A stretch of 64,000 nucleotides of DNA from assembly GCA_964624475.1 (NCBI GenBank), contig CAZUYC010000015.1, positions 9,124-73,123 on the forward strand, read 5' to 3'. Under the pieces are notes generated by a model, which did no database searches, was not told the origin of the DNA, and worked only from the letters and a program-made list of their open reading frames with translations. A program made the position numbers and the translations under genes. Below, piece after piece: positions 47,481 through 60,382 of this stretch; the stretch's first letter is position 1, and each line of letters opens with the position of its first letter. Source of the stretch: an uncultured Spirochaetales bacterium (GTDB taxonomy: Bacteria > Myxococcota_A > UBA9160 > SMWR01).

Positions 47481-48938
47481 TTGCGGAGTCCCGCCGCGCA
47501 GCAATCGCAGCCGAAGGGGCTGGGCGTTCTCTTCATCACCGAGATGTGGGAGCGCTTCAGCTACTACGGGATGCGCGCGCTGCTGGTGCTCTACCTGATC
47601 GCGTCCACCTCGGAGACGCTGCCGGACGGACGGCCGAATGCGAATCCGGGCTTCGGCTGGACGGAAGAGGCGGCGTTCACCCTGTACGGCCTCTACACCT
47701 GGGCGGTGTATGTCACTCCCCTCTTCGGCGGCTGGCTGGCGGACCGGTTCCTGGGCACCCACCGCTCGCTGCTGATCGGCGGCTGGATCATCGCGGCCGG
47801 GCACACGACCCTCGCCCTGACGGAGCTCGCCGGCATCTCGGCGGGCGAAGCGGTGACGCTCCAGGCGAGCCCCGGGGCTCTCGTCACCTTCCTCACGGGT
47901 CTCGTCCTGATCGCGATCGGCACCGGATTCTTCAAGCCCTGCGTCAGCGTGATGGTCGGACAGCTCTACCCGGCAGACGACCCGCGGCGCGATTCCGGCT
48001 TCACCATCTTCTACATGGGGATCAATCTCGGAGCGCTGATGGCGCCCCTCGTGGCGGGAACCCTCGGCGAGACGGTGGGGTGGCACTGGGGCTTCGCGGC
48101 AGCCGCCGTCGGAATGCTGGCCGGCCTCTTCTGCTACCAGATCCTCCGGCCCCGCCATCTGCAGGGCATCGGGCTGGCGCCCCGCGCACGGGCCGCCCCG
48201 GATGCCGCGCGCGTCGCGAGCGAGGCGGACGCGGCCGAGCCGCCGTCGCGCGTGGTGTGGCAGCGCATCGCCGTGATCCTGATCCTCGCCTTCGTCGGCA
48301 ACATCGTCTTCTGGACGGCGTTCGAGCAGGCCGGAAGCTCGCTCAACGTCTTCGCCAAGCACAGCACGGACCGAAGCCTCGGCGGGCTCTTCGGCGCGGA
48401 GGGGTTTCCGGCCTCCTGGTACCAGTCGATCAATCCCCTGGCGATCCTGCTCTTCGCGCCCGTCTTCGCCTGGCTCTGGGTCGCGCTCGATCGACGCGGA
48501 CGCAACCCGTCCACGCCGGCGAAGTTCGCCTGGGGACTCTTCCTGCTGGGCCTGGCCTTCATCGCCATGGTGTTCGGGGCGATCCAGGCGCGGAACGGCG
48601 GCCTGGCCGGTCCCCAGTGGCTGCTCGTCACCTACGTGGTCTACACCTGGGGCGAGATCTGCCTCTCGCCGGTCGGCCTCTCCATGGTCACCAGGCTGGC
48701 GCCGGCGCGCTTGCAGTCGCTGATGATGGGACTCTGGTTCTTCTCGCTCTCGCTGGGCAACCTGTTCGGCGGACTCCTCGCGCGCTTCTCCAAACGCCTC
48801 GAATCGGGTGAGGCGAGCTTCGTGCTCGAGGGCCTGCCGGGCTTCTTCCTCATGCTCGTGGTGTTTCCCGTGGCCGCAGGCGCGCTCATCCTGTTGCTGA
48901 CACCCCGGATGAAGCGCATGATGCACGGCGTGAAGTAG
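47481..48938 (+). CDS. POT/PTR2-family proton-dependent oligopeptide transporter
   Basis: TTG start. ..GLGVLFITEMWERFSYYGMRALLVLYL.. (PTR2 signature 1), ..FGGWLADRFLG.., and 12-14 TM helices. Confidence 0.9.
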   Translation: MRSPAAQQSQPKGLGVLFITEMWERFSYYGMRALLVLYLIASTSETLPDGRPNANPGFGWTEEAAFTLYGLYTWAVYVTPLFGGWLADRFLGTHRSLLIGGWIIAAGHTTLALTELAGISAGEAVTLQASPGALVTFLTGLVLIAIGTGFFKPCVSVMVGQLYPADDPRRDSGFTIFYMGINLGALMAPLVAGTLGETVGWHWGFAAAAVGMLAGLFCYQILRPRHLQGIGLAPRARAAPDAARVASEADAAEPPSRVVWQRIAVILILAFVGNIVFWTAFEQAGSSLNVFAKHSTDRSLGGLFGAEGFPASWYQSINPLAILLFAPVFAWLWVALDRRGRNPSTPAKFAWGLFLLGLAFIAMVFGAIQARNGGLAGPQWLLVTYVVYTWGEICLSPVGLSMVTRLAPARLQSLMMGLWFFSLSLGNLFGGLLARFSKRLESGEASFVLEGLPGFFLMLVVFPVAAGALILLLTPRMKRMMHGVK

Positions 48939-48957
48939 CCTCGTTCGCGGGTGCGAA

Positions 48958-50565
48958 GTGAGTCAGGCGCAGGGCAGGAGCTACGACGCGATCGTGATCG
49001 GCGGCGGCCACAACGGCCTCACCGCGGCCGCCTACCTCGCCCGCGCGGGACAGAGGACGCTCGTCCTCGAGCGTCGCGAGATCGTCGGCGGCTGCTGCGT
49101 CACCGAGGAGATCGCCCCCGGCTGCCGCGCCTCGACGACTTCCTACATCGCCAGCATGCTCCGGCCCGAGGTGATCCGCGACCTCGACCTCGGCTCGCAC
49201 GGCCTTCGCATGCTCCCCTGCGAGCCGGGGCTCCAGGTGGTGCTGCCCGGCGGCATCGCGATTCCGTGGTGGACCGACAATGCGCGGACCGTGACCGAGA
49301 TCGAGCGCTTCTCGAAGCGGGACGCCGCCACCTTCCTGCGGGTCGACGCGCAGCTGAAGAAGCTCGCGCGCTACCTCCAGCCGTTCTTCCTGGAGCCGCC
49401 CCCCGACGTCGGCGCGCGCGGCCTCGGGGGGCTCCTGGAGCTGCTGCGGGTCGGCAAGCGCTTCCGTCGCATCAGCGGGGACGAGATCGCCCAGATGGTC
49501 TCGTTCATGACCGGAAGCCTCGGGGACTTCCTCGACCGCCACTACGAGTCGGAGCAGGTCAAGACGCTGATCCTGGCCAACAACGTCTACGGGAAGCACG
49601 GCGGCCCCTACCAGAACGGCAGCGCGCTCGGCCTCCTCTTCCACCTCCTCTCGGGCGGCGAGCACGGCCTGCAGGGATTCTTCGGGCACGTGATCGGGGG
49701 CATGGGCTCGATCACCCGGGCGATGGCCGCCGCCGGCCAGAAGCTCGGCGTCGAGATCGCCACGTCGTCGCCGGTCGAGCGGATCCTGGTGCGCGACGGC
49801 CAGACCCGGGGCGTCGCGCTGGAGGACGGCACGGAGATCGCCGCGGACCGGGTCCTGTCGAACGCCGACCCGAAGCGGACCTTCCTCGGCCTGCTCGACG
49901 CGTCCGAGCTTCCGGAGGATTTCAGGAGCGCGATCGACGGGATCAAGATGGCGGGGCCGTGCGCCAAGGTGAACCTGGTCCTCGGCCAGGAGCCCCGGGT
50001 CCTGGGCATGCCGGACGACGCCGACCCGGGGCGCCGGTCGCTCTTCACGCTGGTGCCGTCGCTGGAGTTCGCGGAGCGCTGCTACGACACCGCCAAGCTC
50101 GGAGAGATCCCGGAGGAGCTGTGGGTCGACTGCGTGGTAGCCTCGAACGTCGACGACAGCCTGGCGCCCCGGGGCAAGCACGTCATGACCTGCTTCGTGC
50201 AGTACGTCCCGTACCGCCTCGCGCGGGGCGGCTGGGACGAGAGCCGCGAGTCGCTCGGCGACCGCGTCGTGGAGACGATCGCCCGGTATGCCCCGAACGT
50301 CGCGAGCTCGATCGAAGCCCGGCAGGTGCTGACGCCCCTCGATCTGGAGCGCACCTACGGCCTGACCGAGGGCAACATCTTCCACGGCGACCTGGTGCTG
50401 GAGCAGCTCTTCTTCATGCGTCCTGTTCCCGGCTGGGCCCGCTACCGCACGCCCGTGCGCGGGCTCTATCTATGCGGCGCGGGCGCGCATCCGGGGGGTG
50501 GCGTGACCGGGGCGCCGGGCTACAACGCCGCCCACCAGGTCCTCAGGGATCTCGGGCGCGGATGA
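48958..50565 (+). CDS. CrtI/COG1233-like NAD(P)/FAD-dependent oxidoreductase, paralog 1
   Basis: GTG start 19 nt after the POT stop. ..YDAIVIGGGHNGLTAAAYLARAG.. dinucleotide fold. C-terminus ..YGLTEGNIFHG..GWARYRTP..LYLCGAGAHPGGGVTG... Confidence 0.85.
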   Translation: MSQAQGRSYDAIVIGGGHNGLTAAAYLARAGQRTLVLERREIVGGCCVTEEIAPGCRASTTSYIASMLRPEVIRDLDLGSHGLRMLPCEPGLQVVLPGGIAIPWWTDNARTVTEIERFSKRDAATFLRVDAQLKKLARYLQPFFLEPPPDVGARGLGGLLELLRVGKRFRRISGDEIAQMVSFMTGSLGDFLDRHYESEQVKTLILANNVYGKHGGPYQNGSALGLLFHLLSGGEHGLQGFFGHVIGGMGSITRAMAAAGQKLGVEIATSSPVERILVRDGQTRGVALEDGTEIAADRVLSNADPKRTFLGLLDASELPEDFRSAIDGIKMAGPCAKVNLVLGQEPRVLGMPDDADPGRRSLFTLVPSLEFAERCYDTAKLGEIPEELWVDCVVASNVDDSLAPRGKHVMTCFVQYVPYRLARGGWDESRESLGDRVVETIARYAPNVASSIEARQVLTPLDLERTYGLTEGNIFHGDLVLEQLFFMRPVPGWARYRTPVRGLYLCGAGAHPGGGVTGAPGYNAAHQVLRDLGRG

Positions 50566-59166: not shown

Positions 59167-59218
59167 GTCGGGCCGCGCCCCGGAACCCGCGCACCCGTGC
59201 GGCGGCGAGGTGGAAGCG

Positions 59219-60382
59219 ATGAAGATCGACCTCTTCAAGATGGAGAGGACCCAGTGCCTCTTCGAGAACGAGGTGGAGTTCAACCTGTCGGAGAGCGGCG
59301 TCCTGCCACTCAGCCTGGGCGAACTCGTATCCGGCAGCCGGGAGCGCGCCGAGCTCGACGGGCTCCTGCTCAAGTACCCGCATTCGACGGGCCGACCCCG
59401 GCTGCGCGAGAACATCGCGCGCTTCTACGGCTGCGCGGACCCGAGGTGCGTCACGGTCACGAACGGCGGTTCCGAGGCCAACTACGCGGCGCTATGGAGC
59501 CTCGTCGACAAGTCCGACCGGGTGGCGTTCATGCTGCCGAACTACATGCAGGGCTGGGGCCTGGCGAGGGCGTACGGGCGGCAGGTCGACGCGTATCGCC
59601 TGGTCATGAAGCGGGACTCGGGCGGCGACTGGCGATGGGAGCTCGATCTCGACAGCCTTCGCAGGGCCGTCCACAAGAGTACGCGCGTCATCGTCGTGAC
59701 GAATCCGAACAATCCCACCGGCGCAGTACTCGGTGAAGACGAGATGGAAGCGATCCTCGGCGAGGCCCGTCGCGTCGGCGCATGGGTCCTCGCGGATGAG
59801 ATCTACCGGGGAGCGGAGGTCTCCGGTCCCTTGTCACCGACCTTCTGGGGCCGCTACGAGAAGGTCGTGATCACCAGCGGCTTGTCCAAGGCCTTCGCGC
59901 TTCCCGGCTTGCGCTGCGGCTGGGTCGTGGCGCCGCCCTCCCTCATCGCGCGGATCTGCCGGCATCACGACTATCTGACGCTGACCCCATCCTTCCTGGC
60001 CGATCATCTCGCGGACATCGTCATGGAACCCAGCCGCCGGGACCGCGTGCTGAAACGCACTCGAGAGATCATCGCGCGCAACCTTCCCGTCCTGGAGAAG
60101 TGGATCGCGTCGCACGGCGACGTCTTCGAATTCGCGAGACCGATCGCCGGCGCCATCGCGACGGTCAAATACGCCCTGCCGATCGCCTCCGAGACCCTGA
60201 TGCATCGCTTGCTCCGGGAGCAGTCCGTGCTGATCACTCCGGGGGGGCACTTCGGCATCGGTCGCTACATGCGGATCGGCTTCGGCTACGACCTCGAGCG
60301 CACGAGGAAGGGACTGCAGAGGATCGACCCGTTGATCGAGGAGCTGAAGCAGAAGGCTGGCAGAGCTAGCAATTCCCGCTAG
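59219..60382 (+). CDS. Class-I/II PLP aminotransferase
   Basis: ATG 59219 (AGGTGGA upstream; alternative GTG 59210). ..VTNGGSEANY.., ..VTNPNNPTG.., ..DEIY.., ..SGLSKAFALPGLRCGW.. (PLP Lys). Confidence 0.85.
   Translation: MKIDLFKMERTQCLFENEVEFNLSESGVLPLSLGELVSGSRERAELDGLLLKYPHSTGRPRLRENIARFYGCADPRCVTVTNGGSEANYAALWSLVDKSDRVAFMLPNYMQGWGLARAYGRQVDAYRLVMKRDSGGDWRWELDLDSLRRAVHKSTRVIVVTNPNNPTGAVLGEDEMEAILGEARRVGAWVLADEIYRGAEVSGPLSPTFWGRYEKVVITSGLSKAFALPGLRCGWVVAPPSLIARICRHHDYLTLTPSFLADHLADIVMEPSRRDRVLKRTREIIARNLPVLEKWIASHGDVFEFARPIAGAIATVKYALPIASETLMHRLLREQSVLITPGGHFGIGRYMRIGFGYDLERTRKGLQRIDPLIEELKQKAGRASNSR

Follow-up and report, generated by a model that had tools for sequence, protein, structure and literature searches.

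Which reaction is served by nine closely spaced genes that place three related flavoproteins beside a folate-binding protein, a flavoprotein of another family, a peptide transporter, two transaminases and an aldehyde dehydrogenase (ALDH)? This cluster lies on the plus strand at 47481-60382 of the window, that is, the whole stretch of 64,000 nucleotides (nt) analysed here, which has a GC content of about 70% and comes from contig CAZUYC010000015.1 of an uncultured Spirochaetales bacterium (GTDB lineage Myxococcota_A). An earlier note, made from the sequence alone, had proposed a single multi-subunit machine for oxidative N-dealkylation. We found that the three paralogs, denoted C1, C2 and C3, belong by sequence to the family of the orphan flavoprotein PYROXD2, which is mitochondrial and is described as having no known function (PMC8777681). 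This link was not recognised in the earlier note and is the most informative one. We also found that GcvT-C2-C3 and C1-DAO recur apart from each other in other genomes, so that the operon is a mosaic whose modules are conserved separately. We consider it reasonably probable that this mosaic is a tetrahydrofolate (THF)-coupled oxidative N-demethylation operon for N-methylated amino compounds.

All nine open reading frames (ORFs) are on the plus strand at the coordinates listed below and are translated without internal stops. Spurious long ORFs are frequent at about 70% GC; all nine show codon-position bias, with GC at third positions (GC3) of 0.88-0.96 and at second positions (GC2) of 0.46-0.53. 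Along the cluster the spacing is 19, 16 and 6 nt, a 1-nt overlap (TGATG), a 4-nt overlap (ATGA), then 104, 14 and 52 nt, which is exactly the arrangement first described. The searches with Pfam and NCBIfam models bear out every domain family that had been named. Lengths are given in amino acids (aa).

47481-48938, plus strand: POT-family di/tripeptide:H+ symporter, 485 aa, TTG start (PF00854, 229 bits)
48958-50565, plus strand: C1, PYROXD2-family flavin adenine dinucleotide (FAD) protein, 535 aa
50582-51757, plus strand: DAO-family flavoprotein, 391 aa (PF01266, 201 bits)
51764-52954, plus strand: GcvT-family folate-binding protein, 396 aa (PF01571, 217 bits; PF08669, 49 bits)
52954-54543, plus strand: C2, PYROXD2-family FAD protein, 529 aa
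54540-56093, plus strand: C3, divergent PYROXD2-family paralog, 517 aa
56198-57568, plus strand: AT3, class-III aminotransferase, 456 aa (PF00202, 295 bits)
57583-59166, plus strand: ALDH resembling 1-pyrroline-5-carboxylate (P5C) dehydrogenase (P5CDH), 527 aa (PF00171, 439 bits)
59219-60382, plus strand: AT1, class-I/II pyridoxal-phosphate (PLP) enzyme, 387 aa (PF00155, 138 bits)

The cluster ends at 60382, because a convergent gene overlaps the final stop codon. A scan of the cluster, uninformative at 70% GC, found no plus-strand terminator-like site and no σ70-like promoter. Most of the 104-nt gap is filled by a 63-bp tandem duplication at 56080-56183, which runs across the C3 stop codon; the 41-nt sequence GCAAGGCGGCGTAGCCGCCGCGCAGCGAGGCGGAGCCGAGC is present twice in it.

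The assignment of C1, C2 and C3 was based on pairwise comparison, family models and a tree. C1 and C2 share 47% identity and either shares 35-36% with C3, in agreement with the earlier description of two close paralogs and a divergent third. Searches with BLASTP were made against the retrieved mouse PYROXD2; the human sequence used first is 98% identical to ape PYROXD2 in the protein database. C2 matched the mouse protein end to end at 40% identity (392 bits), as did C1 at 39% (359 bits) and C3 at 31% (234 bits), each over nearly the whole protein. The columns of the FAD motifs GxGHNGL (N-terminal) and GSGAHPGGG (C-terminal) are invariant in the family alignment, and C3 retains GxGHNG and HPGGG. 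The label "CrtI-like" that the paralogs had been given did not hold. Against the model crtI_fam (TIGR02734, cut-off 238.1 bits) C1, C2 and C3 scored 121, 132 and 114 bits, and against that of the CrtO ketolase (NF045689, cut-off 1000 bits) 273, 304 and 209 bits, all under the cut-offs; mouse PYROXD2 was likewise sub-threshold (117 and 276 bits). By these sequence comparisons C1-C3 are members of the PYROXD2 family and not of the carotenoid family.

The sole solved relative of the paralogs that can be detected by sequence is CrtI (82 bits). The AlphaFold model of C2 (mean confidence, pLDDT, 81.8) has a CrtI-type protein, 4rep, as its nearest fold (template-modelling score, TM, 0.76-0.82; 18% identity), followed by the flavin amine oxidases NicA2, putrescine oxidase and MAO. 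The bacterial proteins split into four clades in a neighbour-joining tree, namely C2 with short branches, C1, and two divergent partner clades of which one is C3-like; PYROXD2 was the sister of the C2 clade. Model and tree placement had been put forward as a check on the paralogs: the CrtI side of it fell away, while the paralogs separated into distinct clades, one of them beside PYROXD2. C2 orthologs are 59-84% identical across very distant phyla, and the closest species-level match, from a metagenome-assembled genome of Myxococcota, is 80% identical. No other component approaches C2 in conservation, and for this reason C2 is probably the main catalytic subunit.

A genome scan with one genome per species gave at least 592 C2 loci, of which 80 were fetched and analysed together with six earlier loci (86 in total). 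GcvT, C2 and the second paralog were present, in this order, in all six of the first genome and metagenome maps. The second paralog lies directly 3' of C2 in 82 of the 86 loci, and the estimated spacing is in most cases -13 to +36 nt. A GcvT gene adjoins C2 in 70 loci, divergently in 43 and co-directionally in 27; the co-directional genes mostly overlap C2 or sit less than 30 nt away. A GcvT homolog is found somewhere in 73 loci, and several loci lacking the full trio are located at contig ends. This bears out the earlier view that the folate protein is functionally tied to the paralogs. The trio was observed in Acidobacteriota, Planctomycetota, Myxococcota, Bacteroidota, Elusimicrobiota, Chlamydiota, Gemmatimonadota and other phyla. 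Its neighbours include an APC amino-acid permease (34 of 86 loci), a Rieske oxygenase (26 loci; best model GbcA, 132-232 bits with a cut-off of 670) and PurU (13 loci, over the TIGR00655 cut-off). A DAO homolog was found in one of the 86 loci and a POT match in none.

The GcvT protein of the operon is closest to the C-terminal, THF-binding domain of trimethylamine N-oxide (TMAO) demethylase and to T-proteins. Its motifs G.[VI]DD, TGYTG..GYE and R.EAG align with those of the T-proteins 1yx2 and 1woo and of the TMAO demethylase Tdm (9q5a). It looks functional, judging from these folate and T-protein motifs. Its score against the T-protein model of the glycine-cleavage system, TIGR00528, is 145 bits, under the cut-off of 235.85, and neither gcvH nor gcvP adjoins it. 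No DgcAB, SoxBDAG or dimethylglycine oxidase (DMGO) system was seen in any related locus examined. An exhaustive search of 1.84 billion cluster representatives yielded 2,706 PYROXD2-family clusters at E ≤ 1e-30. One of these proteins (P0281, 816 residues; L117, 1437-3887) has an N-terminal GFA domain, PF04828, fused to the PYROXD2-type domain. PF04828 is annotated as glutathione-dependent formaldehyde-activating. The contig carries the eukaryotic-type neighbours VMP1 and RTC, and the protein has a putative mitochondrial presequence. We regard the fusion as supportive: it would be a second link of the family to a formaldehyde-handling partner, in which the carrier would be glutathione and not folate.

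The second module was found by a metagenome scan with the DAO protein as query, which gave 30 loci. In 20 of these a C1 ortholog (71-90% identity) lies directly 5' of DAO, and about 20 C1-DAO loci beyond the close relatives of the window carry no GcvT. A BHMT-like homocysteine S-methyltransferase follows directly 3' of C1-DAO in 8 loci. Other neighbours are an MFS transporter (4-5 loci), a Rieske protein of the same type as above, a TetR regulator and an amidohydrolase of the Xaa-Pro-dipeptidase type. The best match of DAO in the Protein Data Bank (PDB) is 1Y56_B (176 bits), the catalytic β subunit (chain B) of the archaeal L-proline dehydrogenase 1Y56. The demethylases score lower, at 93 bits for DMGO (1pj5), 88 for SoxB and 84 for MSOX, which argues against DAO being one half of a DMGO. 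The DAO subgroup of heteromeric dehydrogenases also includes flavin opine dehydrogenases (PMC4575208). Adjacency of DAO and GcvT is confined to four loci (L087, L088, L089 and L095), all from close relatives in which one module happens to adjoin the other.

The same four loci, 76-92% identical to the window, are the only ones with the order POT-C1-DAO-GcvT-C2-C3-AT3-ALDH, which comprises eight of the nine genes. Two further loci (L003 and L004) have GcvT-C2-C3-AT3-ALDH only. POT is absent from L089 and L113 and AT1 from L003 and L004, so a single nine-gene machine, as first envisaged, is not what is conserved. Of the neighbourhood conservation anticipated for the cluster, the part concerning the trio and C1-DAO stood, since both recur, while the cluster as a whole was found only in close relatives.

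The three enzymes encoded after C3 were compared with family models and solved structures. The best NCBIfam match of AT3 is PRK07483 (436 bits, cut-off 485), and its PDB neighbours are ω-, putrescine- and GABA-transaminases; it is kept 3' of C3 in L003, L004 and L095. A role as lysine ε-aminotransferase was considered and not supported, the PDB neighbours being ω-amine:pyruvate transaminases. The ALDH scores 434 bits against PRK03137 (cut-off 648) and 415 bits against TIGR01237 (cut-off 659.65), and thus falls short of the P5CDH equivalogs; its closest solved relative is the P5CDH 3qan (327 bits). The name P5CDH-like is used here without assigning a substrate. It follows the trio in L003, L004 and L095, and a 50% identical P5CDH-like ALDH directly follows the trio, without a transaminase, in the marine acidobacterial locus L033. 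The pair of ω-transaminase and P5CDH-like ALDH was found only in close relatives. AT1 is under the cut-offs of its best model, PRK07324 (262 bits, cut-off 476), and of GntC (221, cut-off 415) and VioD (219, cut-off 390.9), and it matches 3op7 of the PDB at 184 bits. It was found only in this window and is probably the α-aminotransferase of the pathway. The earlier assignment of transaminase and ALDH to a branch leading from semialdehyde to acid is retained.

From the families, the PYROXD2 homology and the coupling within modules, we infer a complex, a demethylation chemistry, an order of steps and a substrate, as follows. GcvT, C2 and C3 would form a heteromeric THF-coupled oxidative N-demethylase. 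A PYROXD2-family FAD subunit would act on a secondary or tertiary amine, oxidising its N-CH3 bond to give an iminium, and the GcvT-like subunit would hand the one-carbon unit to THF, giving 5,10-methylene-THF instead of free formaldehyde. The two paralogous flavin subunits could take off two successive methyl groups, the second perhaps by C3. C1 would demethylate an N-methyl imino acid, and the L-proline-dehydrogenase-like DAO would oxidise the resulting imino acid to a cyclic imine, either P5C or 1-piperideine-6-carboxylate (P6C). AT3 would turn the demethylated terminal amine, of ornithine or lysine type, into the same semialdehyde or cyclic imine. The P5CDH-like ALDH would then oxidise the semialdehyde to glutamate or 2-aminoadipate, which AT1 would transaminate. 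BHMT-like, Rieske and DmdA-like enzymes, of which the first and last are encoded elsewhere in the window, would strip the first methyl group from quaternary precursors. Substrates may arrive as small peptides through POT.

The most likely substrates are N(ω)-methylated lysine or ornithine, together with N-methylpipecolate or N-methylproline. The human metabolites associated with PYROXD2 fall into the same two classes as are implied here, ω-N-methyl diamino acids and N-methyl imino acids. The C5 series (ornithine and proline) is favoured by the proline-dehydrogenase-like DAO, the P5CDH-like ALDH and a nearby gene of the ornithine-cyclodeaminase (OCD) family, and the C6 series (lysine and pipecolate) is favoured by the human data; the two are not separable.

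The proposed logic is known from other systems. In DMGO, DMGDH, SARDH and 4-methylaminobutyrate oxidase, as proposed here, a flavin oxidises the N-methyl group and a GcvT-fold domain loads THF, and PurU is linked. The DMGO-type enzymes fuse a DAO-family flavoprotein to GcvT, whereas the cluster has a pair of PYROXD2/CrtI-fold paralogs and a separate GcvT gene; the DAO of the window, unlike the DAO domain of those enzymes, belongs to the C1 module. PYROXD2 itself is a single gene without an adjacent GcvT, while the bacterial forms are paralog pairs with a folate protein. SoxBDAG and 1Y56 (α4β4) combine a DAO-type β subunit with a second dinucleotide-binding flavoprotein subunit, as C1-DAO may do, and Sox also has a GcvT-like folate-binding domain. 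However, the cluster is without SoxA, SoxD, SoxG or a 1Y56 α subunit, and the partner of its DAO is a PYROXD2-type protein. Its proteins fall far short of the Sox models (GcvT against soxA, TIGR01372, 191 bits with a cut-off of 1164; DAO against soxB, TIGR01373, 100 bits with a cut-off of 529), and the gaps of 6-19 nt between the genes of the DAO/GcvT region hold no small-subunit ORFs.

Tdm, which joins DUF1989 to GcvT, is the best match of the operon GcvT (183 bits; 280 bits against NF053776, cut-off 1100). The match covers only the C-terminal half (model positions 387-761), the GcvT domain that in Tdm captures formaldehyde from an N-methyl compound. The catalytic half of Tdm differs, being a non-flavin metal domain fused to GcvT. 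Routes for proline betaine, hydroxyproline betaine and glycine betaine use a Rieske demethylase or BHMT, a flavin demethylase, an imino-acid oxidase and an ALDH. Such betaine clusters share with the present one the logic of quaternary to tertiary to secondary amine to imine to acid, and the types of neighbours. They use another family of demethylating flavoprotein, in place of the PYROXD2 type found here, and the Rieske and BHMT-like genes here are under the equivalog cut-offs. Since the combination of flavin and folate is already known, what would be new is a folate-linked flavin N-demethylase built from PYROXD2-family subunits. We found no published description of a GcvT plus PYROXD2-family system, in a search that did not extend to paywalled literature, and no characterised pathway of this composition, as the earlier note had stated.

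The human data on PYROXD2 come from metabolite quantitative trait loci (mQTLs), which are among the strongest in the human genome. Of the variance in plasma N6-methyllysine, 50% is accounted for by the missense variant rs2147896, as are 48% for N6,N6-dimethyllysine and 21% for N-methylpipecolate, and N-acetyl-isoputreanine is also among the PYROXD2-associated metabolites (PMC8109053). N2-acetyl,N6,N6-dimethyllysine is associated with PYROXD2 at p = 3e-85 (PMC13352909). Lower expression of PYROXD2 goes with higher N-methyl signals ("TMA", "DMA") in nuclear magnetic resonance (PMC3169529), as would be expected of an enzyme that consumes N-methyl compounds. Biallelic variants have been linked to a severe infantile mitochondrial disorder. 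An oxidative demethylase of free ε-N-methyl-lysine, ε-alkyllysinase, was described from rat kidney in 1963-64 and is equated with LSD1 in a review (PMC3936616); we found no firm gene assignment for it.

The bacterial context gives PYROXD2 a testable mechanism, in which flavin-dependent N-demethylation would release a one-carbon unit at the level of formaldehyde. This proposal is made because of the pairing with GcvT in many phyla, the PurU, Rieske and BHMT-like neighbours, and the eukaryotic GFA fusion. We extend it tentatively, and with more doubt than conviction, to the suggestion that GcvT with two PYROXD2-family flavoproteins is a new and widespread class of THF-dependent N-demethylase, and that PYROXD2, as its animal ortholog encoded by one gene, is the long-sought enzyme demethylating free N6-methyl- and N6,N6-dimethyl-lysine and N-methylpipecolate, that is, the ε-alkyllysinase activity. 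The main value of the finding is that the open function of PYROXD2 becomes a specific experiment. The cluster also suggests an unrecognised route for methylated amines and one-carbon units in abundant and rarely cultured phyla of soil and sea (Acidobacteriota, Planctomycetota and Myxococcota).

Several points weigh against N-demethylation as the role of the cluster, or against parts of it. All functional claims rest on homology and gene context, and the mQTLs show that PYROXD2 affects the levels of methyl-lysines, not that it acts on them directly. No GcvT-PYROXD2 fusion was seen among the best 150 family representatives, and the GFA fusion was found once, in one Logan assembly, which limits it to a supporting role. 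No electron acceptor, such as an electron-transfer flavoprotein, is encoded near the cluster. In most genomes the trio stands alone, without transaminase or ALDH. ALDH, AT3 and AT1 are all under every equivalog cut-off, and AT3 is of the ω-amine:pyruvate type and no ortholog of the known lysine ε- or ornithine δ-aminotransferases. The GbcA-like and BHMT-like neighbours could equally fit a series from betaine to dimethyl to monomethyl compound, starting from glycine betaine or proline betaine. Finally, relatives differ in whether they carry POT, and an insertion has taken the place of its promoter and 5' end in this genome, so that co-transcription of the nine genes can only be presumed here.

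Four other explanations were weighed. The earlier note took the five flavin and folate genes as one N-dealkylation machine, in which DAO and GcvT are a split dimethylglycine or sarcosine oxidase and the paralogs are accessory. This now appears improbable. In its favour, all five lie side by side with little space between them, both here and in four close relatives, DAO and GcvT are 6 nt apart, and both families are fused in DMGO and DMGDH. Yet GcvT goes with C2 and C3 and DAO with C1: the adjacency of DAO and GcvT is seen only at 76-92% identity, about 20 other DAO loci pair with C1 and have no GcvT, 70 of the 86 C2 loci have GcvT without any DAO, and DAO matches L-proline dehydrogenase β twice as strongly as DMGO. 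A somewhat better candidate, though still an unlikely one, is the degradation of glycine betaine or a similar compound, with a Rieske or BHMT-like enzyme acting first and the PYROXD2-type pair with GcvT then converting dimethylglycine to sarcosine and glycine, in place of DgcAB, DMGO or SoxBDAG. PurU linkage is typical of sox operons, and GbcA-like Rieske proteins (26 of 86 trio loci), PurU (13) and BHMT-like proteins beside C1-DAO (8) would suit this pathway, as would two flavin subunits for two sequential demethylations. The Rieske proteins, however, score 132-232 bits with a GbcA cut-off of 670, which makes a different substrate likely; with glycine as end product there is no role for the ω-transaminase and the P5CDH-like ALDH, which accompany the trio in two lineages; and human PYROXD2 variants track methyl-lysines and N-methylpipecolate in the studies cited.

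A further explanation keeps the amine and drops the methyl group. The flavoproteins would cut a non-methyl C-N bond of an opine-, saccharopine- or polyamine-type conjugate (N-alkyl-lysine or isoputreanine-like) into an amine and an aldehyde for the ALDH, and GcvT would have another role. We give this little credence, although flavin opine dehydrogenases belong to the DAO subgroup (PMC4575208), an ALDH directly follows the trio in L033 without a transaminase, AT3 resembles putrescine and polyamine:pyruvate transaminases, and N-acetyl-isoputreanine is associated with PYROXD2 (PMC8109053). It leaves the near-universal adjacency of GcvT, the PurU linkage and the GFA fusion unexplained, all of which point to a one-carbon product at the formaldehyde level. 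That the paralogs are carotenoid or lipid desaturases or ketolases of the CrtI, CrtO or CrtD type, unrelated to amines, is extremely improbable, and a carotenoid role is effectively excluded. CrtO and crtI_fam are their best NCBIfam models and, among solved structures, a carotenoid desaturase comes nearest in fold, but the scores are far under the cut-offs and the identity to solved CrtI-family structures is 18-20%. No carotenoid gene of the crtB, crtE or crtY type was seen among the annotated genes of the window or the labelled conserved neighbours of the 86 and 30 loci; the neighbours are GcvT, PurU, amino-acid permeases and methyltransferases. The earlier view of the cluster as an amine or N-methyl catabolic unit and not a carotenoid one has therefore stood up, the paralogs being amine-type flavoproteins that fail the carotenoid cut-offs.

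POT is a variable accessory gene. It exceeds the cut-off of TIGR00924 (358.8 bits, cut-off 130.2) and falls under those of the DtpA, DtpB and DtpD equivalogs, and its ortholog in L088 is 86% identical. In the window it begins at a TTG right after an in-frame TGA. An insertion of about 3.8 kb (43670-47504), absent from L088, which is 89-90% identical, has replaced its promoter and 5' end; in L088 a thiolase gene and POT are divergent neighbours about 70 bp apart. Three genes or fragments were recognised in the insertion, the remainder of which is poorly coding sequence:

43873-44607: IS200-like Y1 transposase gene
45079-45594: metallo-β-lactamase fragment
45690-45959: DUF6788 ORF

A 61-codon ORF at 47295-47480 is in the POT frame, has a coding-like GC3 and is separated from the POT TTG by one TGA. 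It is not homologous to the N-terminus of the L088 POT; it may have arisen by chance, belong to the insertion or be the remnant of a fusion that was disrupted. The upstream thiolase and a CoA-transferase were considered as a route from lysine to acetoacetyl-CoA and were not counted, because their adjacency is seen only among close relatives and the insertion interrupts it here.

Two acidobacterial loci carry further genes around the trio. On its divergent side, L001 (4747-8694) and L033 (4607-8015) encode an SdhA-like flavoprotein, an SdhB-like Fe-S protein and a conserved 268-aa protein without a Pfam match. The SdhA/SdhB-like genes were considered as an electron-acceptor module and rejected as probable housekeeping synteny of Acidobacteriota, because they were found in only these two loci of one phylum. 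In L033 a PLP enzyme of the D-serine-dehydratase/alanine-racemase fold (14901-16025) comes after the trio and ALDH, and a group-II PLP decarboxylase (17599-19098) lies beyond it, a hint that the demethylated product takes another route there.

Other genes of the window may be connected with the cluster. A pair located 13 kb upstream on the opposite strand probably belongs to the C1-DAO pathway, because orthologs adjoin C1-DAO in other genomes:

about 31639-32970, minus strand: MFS transporter, 57% identical to the transporter 3' of C1-DAO in L092
32979-34118, minus strand: BHMT-like homocysteine S-methyltransferase (PF02574, 153 bits), 62% identical to the gene directly 3' of C1-DAO in L115

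Downstream, two genes were identified before a DUF885 gene that is cut by the window end (within 60379-63997):

60379-61362, minus strand: ornithine-cyclodeaminase/μ-crystallin family gene, convergent to the cluster, 327 aa (PF02423, 223 bits)
61491-62702, plus strand: second GcvT-family gene, DmdA-like, 403 aa (PRK12486, dimethylsulfoniopropionate demethylase, 380.9 bits, cut-off 410)

The OCD-family protein exceeds the cut-off of the cyclodeaminase model PRK08291 (410.6 bits, cut-off 408), and this similarity makes it a possible link from ornithine or lysine to proline or pipecolate. The DmdA-like protein is 34% identical to the operon GcvT and is a candidate for a THF-dependent methyltransferase acting on the methyl group of an onium compound (quaternary or sulfonium). 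No other locus examined has any of the OCD-family, DmdA-like and DUF885 genes close to the modules. All three may also serve this metabolism.

Peptidase genes are unusually concentrated at 833-20412 and 35674-37863, and a receptor gene lies between these regions:

833-2893, 3827-6730 and 35674-37863: S9 prolyl-oligopeptidase/DPP-IV-like genes
2908-4200: S58 (DmpA-like) peptidase
8714-10744: large amidohydrolase
10378-12303: weak M3-like peptidase
13953-16220: S15 X-Pro dipeptidyl peptidase
29023-31638: TonB-dependent receptor

The peptidases and the TonB-dependent receptor suggest a peptide-scavenging region, which could feed Xaa-Pro or other dipeptides to POT.

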